Shown here: positions 21,101-46,934 of the stretch, in pieces
How the letters are laid out: every line of letters starts with the position of its first letter
How positions within the stretch are numbered: the first letter of the stretch is position 1
DNA from: a virus
Lineage: Duplodnaviria > Caudoviricetes
Strand: one strand, 5' to 3'
IMG/VR virus record: IMGVR_UViG_3300028888_000052
DNA length: 64,000 nt
The notes under the pieces: generated by a model
Told to the model about the DNA's origin: nothing
What the model saw: the letters and a program-made list of their open reading frames with translations, nothing else
Database searches by the model: none
Made by a program: the position numbers and the translations under genes

Positions 21101-23411
21101 TATGAATGTGGTTATGGGTGGAATCCTTTAATACAAAAAGTAAAAAGAGTCATTCATAAATATAATTTAAAGCATAAAAATGATAAAGATTTTGAACCAC
21201 TTAGATTTTCCCAAGTGAAAGAGAAATGGGGTGCTTTAACTATATACACAAATTATTATGTACCAAGAGTTACAAAATATATAAGAAAAGTTGAATACGA
21301 ATCTTATAAAGTTTGTGAACAATGTGGTACTAGAAAAAATAATGTTCATTGTGAACGTACTCATGGTTGGTATATGACTTTATGTGATAAATGTAGGAAA
21401 GAAGAAATAGAAAGACATAATAAGAATATTTAAATGAAAATTTGGTTAAATGATTTAAAAAAAGACGATATATTTTATCATATTGTTTTAAGAAAAGTAT
21501 GGAAATGCAAACATTTAGGAGATGCTCATAATATGAATTATAGAATGCCTTCTATTAAATTTAAGTTTTTAGGAGGATGGCCTAAAGAATTAGAAGAAGT
21601 ATTAGGTAATGTGCATAGCGCTTTTGTTAATCAATATGTTTATGATAATGAAGAAGAAGCAAAAGAGGCTCTTATGGATAAATTAAAAAAAGAACTTCTT
21701 GATACTCAAATGAAAATAATCAACACAAAAGTTAGATTAAATGAACTAGAAGGACAAGAATTAGAAATTAAAAAATTATTAGAGAATGACCAACAAAACC
21801 TTAAAGAAAATATCTGAAAATCCTAATCTTATAGCATTTTGTAATAAAATTTTAGGATATAATACAATATTAGAAAATGAAACATCACGTAATATGTTTT
21901 TAGTATCTTTAATTAGTGCAGATACTTTAATTGATGAACATGCTTGTGATGATACAATTAATATATGTAATTTTATTTTATTTAACATGGATTTAATGAT
22001 GTTAGAAGAAGATGTGAAGAAAAGTGCCATAACTTATTTGAAAAAGGGAATTAGAATAGCTAAAAGAGATAAGAAACAATTTAATAGTAAATAATATGGA
22101 TAAATATTGGGTAAAAGATATTGAAAAACAATTTAGTTCTTATAATGCTGAAGAGTTAGATAAAATTATAGAAATAGCTAATAAACTTAAAAAGACAGCT
22201 AAGTCAAAACCAGAATTCTTAGATGTAATTCGTGAATATGTAAAAGATAAACCAGGAGTTACATTGATTTGTACTGGATATGTAGGTAAAGGTGCTTGGG
22301 AATCAGAAGGTGAATGTTTTTCTGAAAATTGGTACAATATTGATGAAAGAGAAATTGGTGGATTATTTGGTGAAAAGGGTAGAGAAGGTGACCCAGATCA
22401 TCTATTAAATAAATTCTCTACTAAAGAAGATTTTGTTAATGCTTGTGTTAATTCTATTTGGAATAGAAATGAAATAATGAAATTGACCAAAAACTCTTTG
22501 CACATGCCAGAATGGAAAGATAGTGATGCCGCTGATCTTTCTAATGGAGATTGTTCATATGAATTTATAGATATTAATACTAAAAAAATATATTGGATCA
22601 CTAATAATGCTTATGACTGATTATTATTCAAATGATACAGGTATAGTAGAATGGTCAGAATATCAATCTAAAACAGAAGCACCTGTTTTTTCTGAACCGA
22701 TATCTACTAATGGTCAAAAAATTATATTCGAAAGCACTATTTTATGAAAGATATAAATGCCGACACTCAATTTGACGAAAATGAATTAACAGATTATCCT
22801 TATTTAGGTATAGGTAGAAAACCAAGACCCGGAAAAATGATATCCGAAGAAGTATTAGAGAAAATAATAGGAGGATAATTTCTATATTAAATAAAATATT
22901 AAGTAATACATGTTAGTAAAAGAATTAATTGAAAAATTAAAAGAGCAAGATCAAGAAGCTCAAATAGTTTTTTGTGATAGAGCTGGGCTTATTAATGATT
23001 TAGTATTTGATAGAATATTTTCAGATGAATTTGAAGGTAGAAGAATTGTACCTTTATTTATAGGTCCAAGATATTTTGAAAAGGAGACACCAGAAATAGA
23101 AACTAAAGATGAAAATAGCGATACTAATTAATCCATTAAAATCATTACAAGCTAATATTATACTTGATCAAACGCCTTTCAAGTATGATATTAGCTCTAT
23201 ATCTGATAATAAACGATTTATCCCATCTGAAGATTTTTTTGGATTTTGTCAAGATTTGTTAGGAGATCAATTTGGTAAAAGAGAGAATTGCTATGTTGTG
23301 TGTCTTGATATAGATAATGAAGATTCACTTATAAATCCGATAAGTTTGGTGTTATCTAATTTTGTAGAAAACATAGATAAAGATTTTAAAGAAAATGAAA
23401 ATAACAGATGA
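18128..23411 (+). other. Run of hypothetical genes (18128-18790, 18807-19193, ~19183-19317, 19307-19720, 19717-20316 acidic, 20306-20611 lipoprotein-like, 20613-21092, 21089-21433 Zn-ribbon, 21434-21817, 21786-22094, 22096-22620, 22910-23131, 23109-23411)
   Basis: ORF track. 20306 has a signal peptide ending FLFLSC (lipobox-like); 21089 has QVKEKWG plus CxxCG...LCxxC. Confidence 0.7.
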
Positions 23412-23979
23412 ATATGTCTTTTTTTATAAAGATTGGTTAAGTAATTATCAAAGAACCAGTTTTGTTGCTAATATAGATGATATTCTTGGTAAGACTGATG
23501 GTTTGATGAAAGAATTGTTTACATCAACTGAACAAGGATTTATGTTTATTAAAGCATTGTATTTTAATGATTTAAAAACTGCATCAAAAATCATTAAGAC
23601 AAATAATCCGGCCGAATGTCGTAAACTTGGCCGTCAAGTTAAAGGATATAATGATGAAGCTTGGGATAAAATTAGATATGACGTATTTTATTATCTTAAC
23701 CTTGAAAAATATAAGCAAGATAGACAATTACAATATCTTTTATTAGATAAGAAATTTGATCATAAAATTTTTGTTGAAGCTTCTCCAATAGATAGGATTT
23801 GGGGTGTAGGTTATGCAGAAGATGATGATAGAATTGAATATCGAGAATTTGATTGGGGTAGGAACTATCTTGGCAAAATCATAACTAATATTAGAAATAG
23901 AATATTACTAAATAAATTAGAGGATCCAAATTGGAATATTTACAATTATTGGGGTAAAGGAGATGAAAGCGATAGGTAA
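23395..23979 (+). CDS. NADAR-family (YbiA/DUF1768) N-glycosidase / ADP-ribosyl hydrolase
   Basis: LSNY, STEQGFMFIKA.YF.D, RKLGRQVK, WD, KYKQ, VEASPIDRIWGVG, WGRNYLG. Confidence 0.92.
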   Translation: MKITDEYVFFYKDWLSNYQRTSFVANIDDILGKTDGLMKELFTSTEQGFMFIKALYFNDLKTASKIIKTNNPAECRKLGRQVKGYNDEAWDKIRYDVFYYLNLEKYKQDRQLQYLLLDKKFDHKIFVEASPIDRIWGVGYAEDDDRIEYREFDWGRNYLGKIITNIRNRILLNKLEDPNWNIYNYWGKGDESDR

Positions 23980-24031: not shown

Positions 24032-24736
24032 ATGATAGAGTGGAATAAATATTTTGACCATATATACTGTATTCATTATAAACCTCATGTTGAAAGATTT
24101 GATGAATTAAATGAAGAATTAAAAAGGGTTAGAATATTAGATTCAGGTATATTTGAGTATTTCTATAGTGATGTAGATAAGACAAAATATAAAATACCAG
24201 CTAATAAAGTTACAATACATCACAAAAGATGTATTTTAGATGCTTTAAGTAATAAATATGATAGAATATTGATTTTAGAGAATGATATAAGATTCTTGAA
24301 AGATTTATCTATTATGAAAAAATATTTAGAGCAAATACCTAAAGATGCTGATATGGTATGGTTTGATTATATATATGGATATGAATTATCTGAAATTGAT
24401 AGATATAAAAAATTAGATAAAGATTCTCTATATATAAATGTTGGACATGAAAATAGAATATTTTCTGCCGCTTGTTATATGTGTTCTAATCAAATGCAAA
24501 GACATTTGCTTGAATGCTATTCAAGATATCAAACCACCCCGGATTATTTTACTTGGTACAATCCTTTTGCACCTGACCAATTTAGAGATAAATTATTAAA
24601 TAGGTACATTGTAAATAAGAATATTGCTATTCAAAAGGTATTTGATGATAATCTTAGAGCTACATTACATGGAGAAAATAATACATATAAAAGATATACA
24701 TATCAAGGTTTAAATTTGGAAGACTATAATATTTAG
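24032..24736 (+). CDS. Glycosyltransferase, GT25-like
   Basis: FDHIYCI...ER, H..CI..A, ILILEND (EDD-like), SAACY. Confidence 0.7.
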   Translation: MIEWNKYFDHIYCIHYKPHVERFDELNEELKRVRILDSGIFEYFYSDVDKTKYKIPANKVTIHHKRCILDALSNKYDRILILENDIRFLKDLSIMKKYLEQIPKDADMVWFDYIYGYELSEIDRYKKLDKDSLYINVGHENRIFSAACYMCSNQMQRHLLECYSRYQTTPDYFTWYNPFAPDQFRDKLLNRYIVNKNIAIQKVFDDNLRATLHGENNTYKRYTYQGLNLEDYNI

Positions 24737-24785
24737 TCTTCCATTTATTTTTTAAATGATTTTAACATAAATTTTTTATATAATA

Positions 24786-24824
24786 TTTGAAAAAATAATT
24801 TTTGTTTCTATATTATATATGTAA
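24786..24824 (+). promoter_or_regulatory. Early-type promoter driving the mini-ORF array
   Basis: TTTGAA-N16-CTATATTATATATGTAA with no long ORF downstream. Confidence 0.8.
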
Positions 24825-24844
24825 AACAAATAAAAATAAAAACA

Positions 24845-25122
24845 ATGAATAAAAGAAACAAACCCCCGCCCACCCAAATAGATTTATAGATAATGATAAT
24901 GAATTTGAATATATTAATGAATCTTAAATAATTTGAAACATGATAAAATCTAGAGATCGACCCTGATTAAGATATATATGATATAAATTGATGATAATTA
25001 TTAGAATAAATGAAAAAAACTAACGAAGGAGATAGAAAATCCGGTGGAAAGTTTTCCAAATATTTGGTTTTAGATCCACCTTAATAAAGTCCACAACTAT
25101 GGCACGAGCATCCCCCAAATAA
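24845..25122 (+). other. Array of mini-ORFs with proline motifs: MNKRNKPPPTQIDL (24845-24889), MIKSRDRP (24940-24966), MKKTNEGDRKSGGKFSKYLVLDPP (25010-25084), MARASPK (25099-25122)
   Basis: Manual translation; the C-rich patches of this region fall on in-frame Pro codons. Confidence 0.55.
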
Positions 25123-25176
25123 AATAAAATATTTTTTAATTCTAAATTGTACTTAAACTATTTTATAAATATAATA

Positions 25177-25403
25177 AGAGACGAGAATTATGTTGTGAAA
25201 CATACGTCTTTGTATCACCACATTAGACAATATATCCAAGAGTTATATAGATGGCGCTACTAAATACCGGACATTCTCGATTAGCGAAGGCGTTTGCCAT
25301 CAATAATCATTTATGAGATCTGCATGGAGATACGGTCGCAACCAAGTTTAGTTGAGGAATATTAATGGTGATTTTGATGAGGACTCATAAGAGTCCTCTT
25401 TTT
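25177..25403 (+). ncRNA. Putative structured non-coding RNA of unknown class
   Basis: GC-elevated region with no long ORF. Nested helices: AGACG/CGTCT enclosing TATGTT-GTGA-AACATA; ATCACC..ATTA/TAATGGTGAT; GATGGC/GCCATC; GCTA/TAGC. Upstream CTATTTTATAAAT motif and a downstream terminator. Confidence 0.6.
25379..25403 (+). terminator. Intrinsic terminator
   Basis: GAGGACTC-ATAA-GAGTCCTC followed by TTTTT. Confidence 0.85.
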
Positions 25404-25459
25404 GTGTAATTATATCTCTATTTTTACTATTTTAAATTTAATCATTTGAATAATAGTGT

Positions 25460-27334
25460 ATGACATCAGACGTAATTATAAGTAGAGAAATTATTGAAAA
25501 TAACATAAAAGATTGGGTATTCGAAAAAATTAGTGAGAAATTTGAATTTAGACAACACCAATTAGAATGTATTGTTAATATTATTGATAATATCCTTTCT
25601 CATGGTAATCACAATTATGTGGTTGAGGCTCCTACCGGTTCTGGTAAATCTTTAATTAATATAATAGCTGCTGGAGTTTTGGCAGATTATTGGGATATTA
25701 CTTCATATATTCTTGTTTCAGATTTATTTTTATGGGAACAGTATTCTGATTTCTTAGTAAAGCATAAGAAAACAGGAATTGCTATGCTTAAAGGTAAGAT
25801 AGGTAATTATAAGTGTATGCTTAATGGTGAAGATATTACTTTAGCAGATTGTACACTTTCTGGTTTATCTTGGGCCTCTATGTATAATTTAAACACAATC
25901 AAAGAATATGGATATGATTGTGCTCATTCATGTCAATATGTTAAAGCACGTAAAAAAGCAGTTAAGTCTAAAGTTTGTTTAATGACATATCAGTTATTTA
26001 TACAAACATTCAAGATGATTAACCCAGATGATAATAATCCATACCAATTCAAATATCGTGATGTGATATTCTGTGATGAGTGTCATAATATTCCAAGTAT
26101 TGTAGAACAAAGAGTACATGCTCATATTAAAGAAAAAGATCTTAAAACTTTATTGGAAATTTATGATTATGTAAATAATAAAGAATTAGATTTATTTGAA
26201 AATCTTGAAGAGGATCAATCTAGTAAACCATTTATAAATATGACCCGTCAAGATGTTATAAATGAATTTAATGAATGTTGGAAAGTATTAAGTAATCCAG
26301 AATCACGAAAAGATGAAGATATGATATATCGAGAAAGATATGATGTATTGATTCAAAAATTCGTGCCAGTATGTGATGATATTAGAAATAAGATTACTTT
26401 AATGAAGAAATCTAAACAACACTTATCTAAAGAGGATTTGCATATGTTTAGTATTTCTAATTGGTTTTGGGATTATGCCCTTGAATTTGGTGAATATTGT
26501 GGACTTATTTCATTTTGTGGTAAAGAATATCAATTAAAAGAAATTGCTCCTGATAATAGAAAAGAAGAAGGTCCTGTTTGTACTTTTAGATGCCTTAAAG
26601 AAGATTATTTAGTGTATAAATATTTGTTAACAAAAGCTCAATGGAGAGTTATGTTATCTGCTACTATTGGTGGTCATGAGGCATTTGATGAGAATATGGG
26701 ATTTACTTATACAGAAGATCAAAAATCTTTAATGGAAGTTATACCTTCAACTTTTGATTTTACTGAGTCACCAGTTCATTTCTTGAATAAATTCAAAATG
26801 TCATTGAAAGAACGTGATATTTCATTTGGTCATCTCAAGACAGTTATATATTCTATTTGTAATACCAAATTTAAAAATCAAAGAGGAATGATACAAACAG
26901 GATCTTATGATATTGCAAAAAGATTATATGACCAAGCACCATTAGAAATAAAACAAAGAATGTTGGTTTATAATGGGTCAAGAGAAAAGAACACGATGAT
27001 TAAAATTCATCAAATGTCAGATAATACAATATTGGTTGGACCTACATTGAATGAAGGTATTGATTTACCAGGTGATGAATGTAGATTTATTATCATTATG
27101 AAAGTCCCATATCCAAGTCTTGGTGATAGATATGTAAAAGAGAAAATCAAGTTTTATCCCTTATGGTATAATTCAACAACATCTAATGAAATTATCCAAG
27201 GTATTGGTAGAGGAGTAAGATTTGATGGTGATTGGTGTGTCACATATATATTTGATGCTTGTTTCTGGAATTTATATTGTTCCACTAAAGAGCAATATTC
27301 ACAAGAACTCCAAGATAGAATTAACATAATTTAA
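25460..27334 (+). CDS. dinG: DinG/Rad3(XPD)-family SF2 helicase
   Basis: EAPTGSGKS, Cys cluster (Fe-S region), DECHN, LSATI, EGIDLPGD..RFIII.KVPYP, QGIGRGVR. Confidence 0.9.
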   Translation: MTSDVIISREIIENNIKDWVFEKISEKFEFRQHQLECIVNIIDNILSHGNHNYVVEAPTGSGKSLINIIAAGVLADYWDITSYILVSDLFLWEQYSDFLVKHKKTGIAMLKGKIGNYKCMLNGEDITLADCTLSGLSWASMYNLNTIKEYGYDCAHSCQYVKARKKAVKSKVCLMTYQLFIQTFKMINPDDNNPYQFKYRDVIFCDECHNIPSIVEQRVHAHIKEKDLKTLLEIYDYVNNKELDLFENLEEDQSSKPFINMTRQDVINEFNECWKVLSNPESRKDEDMIYRERYDVLIQKFVPVCDDIRNKITLMKKSKQHLSKEDLHMFSISNWFWDYALEFGEYCGLISFCGKEYQLKEIAPDNRKEEGPVCTFRCLKEDYLVYKYLLTKAQWRVMLSATIGGHEAFDENMGFTYTEDQKSLMEVIPSTFDFTESPVHFLNKFKMSLKERDISFGHLKTVIYSICNTKFKNQRGMIQTGSYDIAKRLYDQAPLEIKQRMLVYNGSREKNTMIKIHQMSDNTILVGPTLNEGIDLPGDECRFIIIMKVPYPSLGDRYVKEKIKFYPLWYNSTTSNEIIQGIGRGVRFDGDWCVTYIFDACFWNLYCSTKEQYSQELQDRINII

Positions 27335-46530: not shown

Positions 46531-46934
46531 AACAAATAAATGATATGAAATACGTAAATCTTTCAGAACTCGAATTAAATAAGGATTACATTTTCTGTTG
46601 GCTAGATGGTGAGAATATCTTCAACCCACTTAATGCCATAGTTAAAAGTGATGGTTCAAAGAGGATTTTGGTAGACCCAGATGATGAGTTTTATGTATTT
46701 CATTTTCTTGAATTTGTAAAGGACAAAGAAGCAAGGTTACTTGTTTTTGATAATGTCAAAGAAGCTTATGATTGGTGTTGGAATGCTAATTTAAATAATT
46801 AAATAATATGTATCACGAATATTTAGATCATCACAATGAAAATTATACTGGTATCGAAGGATGCTACAATGGTATGGATGCTAATGATTATGCATTTGAG
46901 AAGGCTTTAGAACAACTTGAAAATTGTTAATATT

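Follow-up and report, generated by a model that had tools for sequence, protein, structure and literature searches.

Frame-conserved, proline-containing mini-ORFs in an accessory phage module: a comparison with known proline-dependent minigenes and arrest peptides

Translation of three consecutive prolines requires EF-P, and termination is slow when proline is the last residue before the stop codon. The TnaC peptide ends in this way (...HRP-UGA), and its Pro-stop end makes the progress of the ribosome a regulatory signal. Very short ORFs can act in other ways. In the type I-F CreTA system of Pseudomonas aeruginosa, a 15-nt mini-ORF ending in PP-stop and carried on a small RNA, CreT, suffices for growth arrest; its action needs the prolines to be translated, tolerates synonymous Pro codons and arrests translation in trans (bioRxiv 10.64898/2026.06.02.729485). 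CreT has a single ORF, a canonical Shine-Dalgarno (SD) sequence and an adjacent stabilising hairpin, and is repressed by a CRISPR guide, CreA (bioRxiv 10.64898/2026.06.02.729485). In the lambda bar minigenes, and in synthetic ones, short peptidyl-tRNAs drop off the ribosome and sequester the tRNAs that read the last codons, an effect that rises with rare (‘hungry’) codons and with shortness; nascent chains of fewer than ~7 residues tend to leave as peptidyl-tRNA (PMC8012679; PMC2490762). The lambda bar minigene comprises just two codons, AUG-AUA-stop; its toxicity requires limiting Pth, and no selection on its peptide sequence is known. In Bacteroidota, uORFs ending in NSP-stop or NAP-stop arrest the ribosome while the stop codon occupies the A site, and an LPPP motif stalls as well; the NSP-stop and NAP-stop arrest needs Asn at position -3 (plus Lys at -5 in the case of NSP-stop) and a long peptide with a localisation signal (PMC10987492). 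These arrest uORFs encode ~60–170 residues with N-terminal localisation signals and lie upstream of secA, secDF or yidC (PMC10987492). Arrest at RAPP-like motifs needs the adjacent N-terminal region in the exit tunnel, the motif alone being insufficient (PMC12992588). Finally, mgtP, in the leader of the Salmonella mgtCBR operon, is a short ORF with Pro codons in which ribosome progress is the regulatory signal (PMC3641672).

The locus compared here with these systems lies in the DNA of a tailed phage (IMG/VR record IMGVR_UViG_3300028888_000052), of which a stretch of 64,000 nt was analysed (hereafter, the window); it is AT-rich (27% GC) and carries phage genes. A gene-free spacer of 723 nt (24737-25459), located between a GT25-like glycosyltransferase gene (24032-24736) and a helicase gene (DEAD_2/Helicase_C_2; 25460-27334), houses the module under study. 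No long ORF was found in this spacer in any of the six frames. A hidden gene or an alternative genetic code was rejected on this ground, TAG readthrough adding only a few codons. A terminator scan identified an intrinsic terminator of the glycosyltransferase gene on the + strand (24717..24743; a 10-bp stem plus a T-run), kept in all relatives, which is predicted to shield the module from upstream transcription. The module promoter follows at 24786..24826 (+ strand) and consists of TTTGAA, 16 nt and a CTATATTATAT[A/T]TG box. It has no mismatches to a motif repeated in the window, with at least six near-identical copies on the + strand as opposed to none in 100 shuffled sequences. Bacteroidota sigma-A promoters have the consensus -33 TTTG, -7 TAnnTTTG (PMC7366714), which the phage motif fits, with TTTG at -33 and a TAnnTTTG-like box at -7. 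A first-pass annotation, made by inspection of the window, had described a full-consensus promoter followed by mini-ORFs instead of a gene, which is what the motif comparison and the six-frame search confirm. At six other promoter copies, the first ATG lies 7–19 nt past the motif and opens a real gene of 84–279 aa; the first ATG behind the module promoter, at the promoter distance usual for real genes, opens a frame of just 14 codons, here named ORF1. The 5′ leader in between (24827..24844, + strand; ~18 nt) is A-rich, with A at -3, -6, -11 to -13 and -15. An A at -3 precedes 72% of the 58 long ORFs of the window, an SD-like core only two of the 58, and ORF1 shares the A at -3 with two further mini-ORFs, ORF2 and ORF4. 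The sigma-A-type promoter and the SD-poor starts with A at -3 point to a member of the Bacteroidota as the host, and it is the host-type promoter that would make the module transcript an early one.

Four mini-ORFs were present in the module on the + strand, at the positions given in the first-pass annotation: ORF1 (24845-24889), ORF2 (24940..24966), ORF3 (25010-25084) and ORF4 (25099..25122). Two filler mini-ORFs (24893..24931 and 24991-25023) were present as well. Their total number matches chance, six being observed and 5.1 expected from 5,000 dinucleotide-preserving shuffles. In the same shuffles, Pro in the last two codons was found 0.63 times on average, as compared with the three cases observed (P=0.02), and an in-frame PPP was similarly uncommon (P=0.02). 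The case that can be made from the window sequence alone is thus thin, the Pro ends and the PPP being only modestly unusual. Codon usage was determined for the 58 long ORFs (15,024 codons), in which Pro accounts for 2.8% of codons and is written as CCT (159) or CCA (247) but seldom as CCC (8) or CCG (12), the last two making up 4.7%; both are disfavoured, as the first-pass annotation had noted. The five prolines of ORF1, ORF2 and ORF4 in the window are all CCC or CCG, and the CGA, TCC and ACC codons found in these mini-ORFs are likewise rare in the phage. The annotation had also placed the C-rich islands of this stretch on in-frame Pro codons; this does not hold for every CC pair, TCC, GGT and GTCCAC contexts being present too. 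The long ORFs contain no PPP and only four PP, and none of them ends in Pro. The phage proteome strongly avoids proline runs.

Relatives of the locus were found in metagenome assemblies by means of the flanking proteins. No similar DNA was detected in deposited phage genomes, the motifs of the module were absent from IMG/VR and GTDB genomes, and the closest IMG/VR relatives by helicase had nothing in common with the locus except the promoter motif. The relatives showed the glycosyltransferase-helicase spacer to be a cargo hotspot, ranging from 65 nt to ~1 kb and holding differing cargo. It is empty and 65 nt long in three loci (L023-L025), spans 81 nt in one relative, and contains only a downstream structured RNA in L013 (341 nt) and L014. 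The promoter, the mini-ORFs and the RNA occur together, in spacers of 713–724 nt, in the window itself (L026), L012, L015 and L021 (the same as L022). The same promoter precedes an ordinary 92-aa gene in L018. In L017/L020, tandem promoters are followed by four mini-ORFs, a 91-aa gene and a terminator, without the RNA. The cargo proteins of L018 and L020 belong to no PHROG family and are unrelated to each other. These spacer contents indicate that the promoter plus mini-ORF segment (~390 nt), missing from many relatives, is an accessory module independent of the RNA. Mosaic haplotypes such as L015 are present, and recombination is evident. Several of the assemblies break ~94 nt past the glycosyltransferase stop codon, at the repeated promoter.

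The structured RNA (25176..25405, + strand; ~228 nt) ends in an intrinsic terminator (25379-25398) and is near-invariant in the relatives, even where the flanking genes differ at ~30% of third positions. One compensatory change, A-U to G-C, was found in its closing helix (L021), and the terminator stems covary; no Rfam family was found for it. It is probably part of the same transcript, as cargo outside the mini-ORF module. Control of this RNA by the array, one of the roles considered in the first-pass annotation, is not supported by the comparison: L013 and L014 have the RNA and lack the array, L020 has the array and lacks the RNA, and no conserved pairing between the two was detected. An internal variable arm of the RNA exists as two alleles, L015 being a recombinant between them. 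A second promoter-like box, CTATTTTA..AAAT.TAAT, is present at 25156-25175 and at 25420-25440, ahead of the structured RNA and of the helicase gene, respectively. This box is retained in relatives without the mini-ORF module and may correspond to a different (middle?) promoter class.

Selection on the mini-ORFs was analysed in five distinct haplotypes of one narrow lineage, in which recombination is evident and the third-position divergence of the flanking genes from the window ranges from 6–7% (L012) to 25–33% (L017/L020). When changes were counted as minimal events in the ATG frames of ORF1, ORF2 and ORF4, 14 were silent and 3 conservative, the expected silent fraction being 0.26 (binomial P ~2e-5). 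The script had returned 13:4, counting ACC to ACA, a silent change, among its four replacements. The two remaining frames had silent fractions of 0/11 and 3/14. Indels within ORF1 and ORF4 were multiples of three, save for a 1-nt deletion located after the Pro codon of ORF4 in L015, and those between the ORFs were of 1, 3 or 4 nt. The comparison shows purifying selection on the ORF1, ORF2 and ORF4 peptides, with the frame kept. Frames of 7–14 codons, which are invisible to gene callers, can therefore show clear protein-level selection. The check proposed in the first-pass annotation, whether related genomes keep the Pro motifs and their frames while changing synonymously, gave a positive result for these three ORFs and a negative one for ORF3, with its PP-stop, and for the fillers. 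The outcome it had named as contrary, C-runs kept while frame and ATG are lost, was not seen; the reverse was found, the Pro codons being swapped synonymously with frame and ATG kept.

In ORF1, of 14 codons in the window, the conserved core covers codons 1–10 (24845-24874) and reads MNK[R/K]NKPPP[T/S/I]. Three haplotypes have the stop at codon 11, the other two at codon 14 or 15. Codons 1–9 contain seven variable sites, of which six are silent third positions and one is the R/K replacement; the single indel is an in-frame deletion of 3 nt. In L020 all three Pro codons are swapped synonymously. The window and L020 differ at 8 of 33 nt with the peptide kept, which rules out mere recency as the cause of ORF1 conservation. 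ORF2 has eight codons, MIKSRDRP-stop, with Pro (CCC) immediately before the stop codon, and is retained in the five haplotypes, TCT/TCA and TGA/TAA, both silent, being the sole changes. An extra ORF of L020, MARDRPI-stop, is a paralogue repeating the RDRP core of ORF2. ORF4 reads MARASPK-stop in the window and MARASP-stop in L020. The four or five changes within MARASP are all silent (CGA/AGA, at the first position; TCC/TCG/TCA; CCC/CCT). In L020 the Lys codon was lost in frame, and a stop codon one codon ahead of the ATG fixes the start; in L015 the 1-nt deletion past the Pro leads to readthrough, to a total of 18 codons. L020 has four proline-ended ORFs, the unit having been multiplied. In the conserved ORFs Pro occupies the last or second-to-last codon, or forms a PPP two codons ahead of the stop, and the selected residues extend beyond Pro to basic N-terminal ones. 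No further copies of the peptide motifs were found outside the module in the window or in any relative locus examined.

The interval between ORF2 and ORF4 (24967..25098, + strand), a variable ‘body’ that holds the second filler and ORF3, evolved differently. In L012 a change from A7 to A8 shifts the frame of ORF3; the PP of ORF3 is changed to PH or PY in L015 and L012, and this ORF has accumulated 4–5 replacement changes. The whole body, ORF3 included, is swapped for a different unit in L021 and L020, and at least two unrelated versions of the body exist across the haplotypes. A host origin of the body unit was sought among species-representative genomes, none of which matched it exactly. Neither filler keeps both ATG and frame in relatives, the first being disrupted by loss of the ATG and by indels of 1 and 4 nt. 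ORF3 and the fillers look like chance ORFs. In both body versions (25024-25033; L021 715-728; L020 416-429), GATAG comes after a strong purine core of the Shine-Dalgarno type, with no start codon at the right distance, in a phage whose genes are otherwise SD-less (2/58).

Some parts of the module outside the peptides are also invariant. The promoter is unchanged in five of five haplotypes, and so is the 18-nt leader, despite the 25–33% third-position divergence of the flanking genes. A block of 15 nt after ORF1 (24880..24894, + strand) is unchanged in all haplotypes too. These invariant segments are best read as signs of some selection at the nucleotide level. The 15-nt block could form the 5′ arm of a weak hairpin covering the ORF2 start, for which RNAalifold gave a consensus energy of only -5.7 kcal/mol; none of its pairs is compensated, and two changes disrupt pairing. 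No significant fold was found anywhere in the module, the bodies showing neither a conserved fold (z-scores of -0.6 to +0.8) nor covariation; structured RNAs in the bodies or in the ORF1-ORF2 interval were rejected given z-scores near 0 and the lack of compensatory pairs. The terminator scan detected no terminator-like hairpin after any micro-ORF, the nearest being a terminator ~260 nt downstream. Searches against Rfam gave no match at the gathering score, and two chance-level matches only at loose E-values; a lone CRISPR-repeat match, on the promoter, was sub-threshold and attributable to chance. ARAGORN found no tRNA or tmRNA in the window or in six relative loci, so that a tRNA/tmRNA relic was rejected. 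Ribosome bypassing from ORF1 to ORF2, of the T4 gene-60 kind, was rejected because the take-off codon is not conserved, and an amber-gated leader because ORF1 ends in TAA in three haplotypes.

The phage module resembles CreT in having, as the presumed active part of a small RNA, mini-ORFs of a few codons that end in proline plus stop. The sequence features of an efficient start joined to a mini-ORF of few codons are present, namely a consensus promoter, a canonical promoter-ATG distance and an A-rich, SD-less leader. Two Pro codons right before the stop, however, occur in the unconserved ORF3 only; in three haplotypes one codon separates the PPP of ORF1 from the stop, and ORF2 and ORF4 have a single Pro. 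A stabilising hairpin beside the ORF and a CreA-like guide are absent. Whereas CreT is one ORF with an SD, the phage module has 3–4 tandem ORFs of 6–14 codons with no SD, no adjacent hairpin and no CRISPR link. With lambda bar it shares the presence of phage-borne ORFs of few codons, but its peptides have 6–14 residues, are conserved and share proline. The first-pass annotation had recognised no described phage system of this form; that statement has to be tempered, as lambda bar minigenes and the CreT proline-codon toxin are close precedents for a module of proline-ended mini-ORFs.

Similarities to the Bacteroidota arrest uORFs comprise the C-terminal Pro plus stop and the PPP, and the R-A-S-P of ORF4 may be compared with the R-A-x-P cores that are the hallmark of that family. 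The annotation had likened RASP to arrest motifs, and RASP is indeed listed, as a motif only, for SecM-clustered uORFs (PMC10987492). Pro as the last residue, as in NSP-stop and NAP-stop, is found in ORF2 in five of five haplotypes and in ORF4 in L020, as a feature of the sequence only. The -3 position, in contrast, is occupied by Asp in ORF2 and Ala in ORF4 and not by Asn, and these peptides have 6–8 residues. Against the RAPP-like core R-[A/G]-[P/G]-[P/G] (RAPP, RGPP, RAGP, RAPG), ORF4 offers R-A-S-P and ORF2 R-D-R-P, which is not a listed core. The N-terminal segment on which RAPP-like arrest depends is missing, since only M-A precedes RASP and M-I-K-S precedes RDRP (2–6 residues across the peptides). 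The secA, secDF or yidC context and the localisation signal are missing as well, the module being followed by the structured RNA or the 91-aa gene and then by the helicase gene. As to attenuators, mgtP and TnaC depend on defined alternative structures of the RNA or on a neighbouring Rho site, and each serves one fixed downstream operon. The module has the three Pro codons of ORF1 and the weak, non-covarying hairpin over the ORF2 start, but no terminator after the ORFs, no conserved structure of that sort, and cargo that varies.

Taken together, the selection pattern and the position of the prolines suggest, with a probability of about 0.5, that ORF1, ORF2 and ORF4 are translated, selected micro-ORFs acting via slow proline chemistry on the ribosome; that the ORFs are translated and that the proline end is the point are what we infer. 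The host-type, early promoter would drive transcription of the module as an otherwise non-coding RNA, on which each micro-ORF would load a ribosome at its A-rich, SD-less start. The ribosome would then be held at the proline or stop codon, since proline slows both peptide bond formation and termination and the codons are seldom used, and with chains so short some peptidyl-tRNA would be expected to drop off. Efficient loading combined with slow proline ends would make the transcript a ribosome-engaging RNA. EF-P, release factors, tRNA-Pro and a surveillance defence, the targets put forward in the first-pass annotation, are at most candidates. Its output might be exerted in trans, by interfering with host translation as CreT proline-codon toxins or lambda bar minigenes do, and the phage could be spared because it barely uses CCC, CCG or CGA. 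One limit on this stalling reading is that, among the conserved ORFs, consecutive prolines occur in ORF1 only. The stalling step itself, which is common to this output and to the cis output considered below, has roughly even odds of being real. We lean slightly towards the output in trans, in view of the multiplied ORFs (four in L020), the lack of a conserved cis structure, the exchangeable cargo, the accessory distribution and the use of codons that are rare in the phage.

A more specific version of the trans output can be envisaged, though it is improbable as it stands. The strong early transcript would work as a multi-copy ‘minigene sponge’ with 3–4 independently initiated, proline-ended micro-ORFs, written in codons used by the host and rare in the phage (CCC, CCG, CGA, TCC, ACC). 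Ribosomes would pause on these and let go of short peptidyl-tRNAs; the corresponding tRNAs, and possibly also Pth, EF-P or release factors, would thereby be withheld from host translation, which would starve, and phage translation would be spared. A strict rare-tRNA model is weakened because the identity of the Pro codon drifts in L020, where the common codons CCA (in ORF1) and CCT (in ORF4) are used. If true, the sponge would be a codon-biased device for host shut-off or counter-defence, and selective host shut-off through the rare-codon bias is an idea open to direct testing. Should the micro-ORFs indeed stall ribosomes, a phage would be carrying minimal stall sequences in tandem, shaped by natural selection and shorter than any characterised Bacteroidota arrest peptide. 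Such a tandem array would link Pro-stop termination stalling, polyproline pausing and minigene peptidyl-tRNA drop-off to a phage strategy. The rules of initiation and stalling on Bacteroidota ribosomes are poorly known, and the sequences of six to ten residues are ready probes for them.

The output might instead be exerted in cis, which is tentative but comes a close second, the stalling step being the same and only the output differing. The module would then be a translated leader in which Pro-dependent pausing senses host Pro-tRNA, EF-P or termination capacity and controls or protects the downstream cargo. Attenuation, exclusion of Rho or RNases, and exposure of a masked start codon are conceivable routes, with mgtP, TnaC and SecM as models. 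The cis output is favoured by the position of the module, always between promoter and cargo with no intervening terminator, and by the leader of the L020 91-aa cargo gene being a third copy of the body unit. The RNAalifold hairpin, with one arm just past the ORF1 stop and the other over the ORF2 start, is a further point in its favour, and in mgtP a short ORF with Pro codons is part of a leader with tandem attenuators (PMC3641672). That hairpin, however, is weak and has pair-breaking in place of compensatory changes, and neither a significant fold nor a terminator-like hairpin accompanies the micro-ORFs. Further, the cargo is not the same in all haplotypes, a 91-aa gene unrelated to the structured RNA taking its place in some, the RNA has a promoter-like box of its own and occurs without the module, and 3–4 tandem ORFs exceed what an attenuator needs.

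The micro-ORFs might also be translated and selected with stalling beside the point, the products acting as free micropeptides (short basic proline peptides binding a host or phage target) or the ORFs serving only as spacers for which any translation would do. Both the conservation of basic N-terminal residues in addition to Pro and an accessory, moron-like distribution, which fits host-interaction factors, agree with micropeptides. Peptides of 6–10 residues without a shared fold or target motif would nonetheless make poor ligands, and the trait common to the three otherwise unrelated peptides, a C-terminal Pro in rare codons, is not predicted by a free-peptide role. A role for translation as such would not conserve residues. 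We consider this explanation quite improbable.

The absence of any function is a still weaker candidate and a very unlikely one. The locus would be a recombination hotspot at a repeated promoter, with mini-ORFs that are relic 5′ ends of cargo genes and look alike through recent shared ancestry. A spacer that varies from 65 nt to ~1 kb with its cargo, the free decay of ORF3 and the fillers, mosaic haplotypes such as L015 and a mini-ORF number at chance level are all compatible with this. It does not account for the 14:3 ratio of silent to replacement changes and the in-frame indels, for an ORF1 peptide left intact across 8 differences in 33 nt between the window and L020, or for the persistence of rare codons ending in C or G in a genome of 27% GC. 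A nucleic-acid motif that is not coding (C-rich islands of RNA or DNA used by Rho or bound by a protein, a regulatory small RNA, or remnants of tRNA genes) would suit the conspicuous C-rich, G-poor islands in an AT-rich RNA, the invariant leader and 15-nt non-coding blocks and the tRNA D-arm-like letters of unit C in L020, but is scarcely credible given that the variation is three-periodic and silent in the ATG frame only, that the C-run itself varies as Pro codons swap their third bases, and that no ARAGORN tRNA (window and six loci), Rfam match or conserved structure was found.

Three additional observations concern the surroundings of the module and the repeated promoter. Behind another promoter copy of the window, the first ATG opens a Met-Ile-stop frame (46538-46546) that overlaps the ATG of the real gene; it has the form of the lambda bar minigene and may be due to chance. 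In L020 (positions 1-91; see also L017 2780-2803), two tandem promoter copies lie ahead of the mini-ORF array. Two genes upstream of the spacer, the window carries a gene for a NADAR-domain protein (23395-23979), a variable accessory gene that is present in some relatives and missing from L013 and L017.
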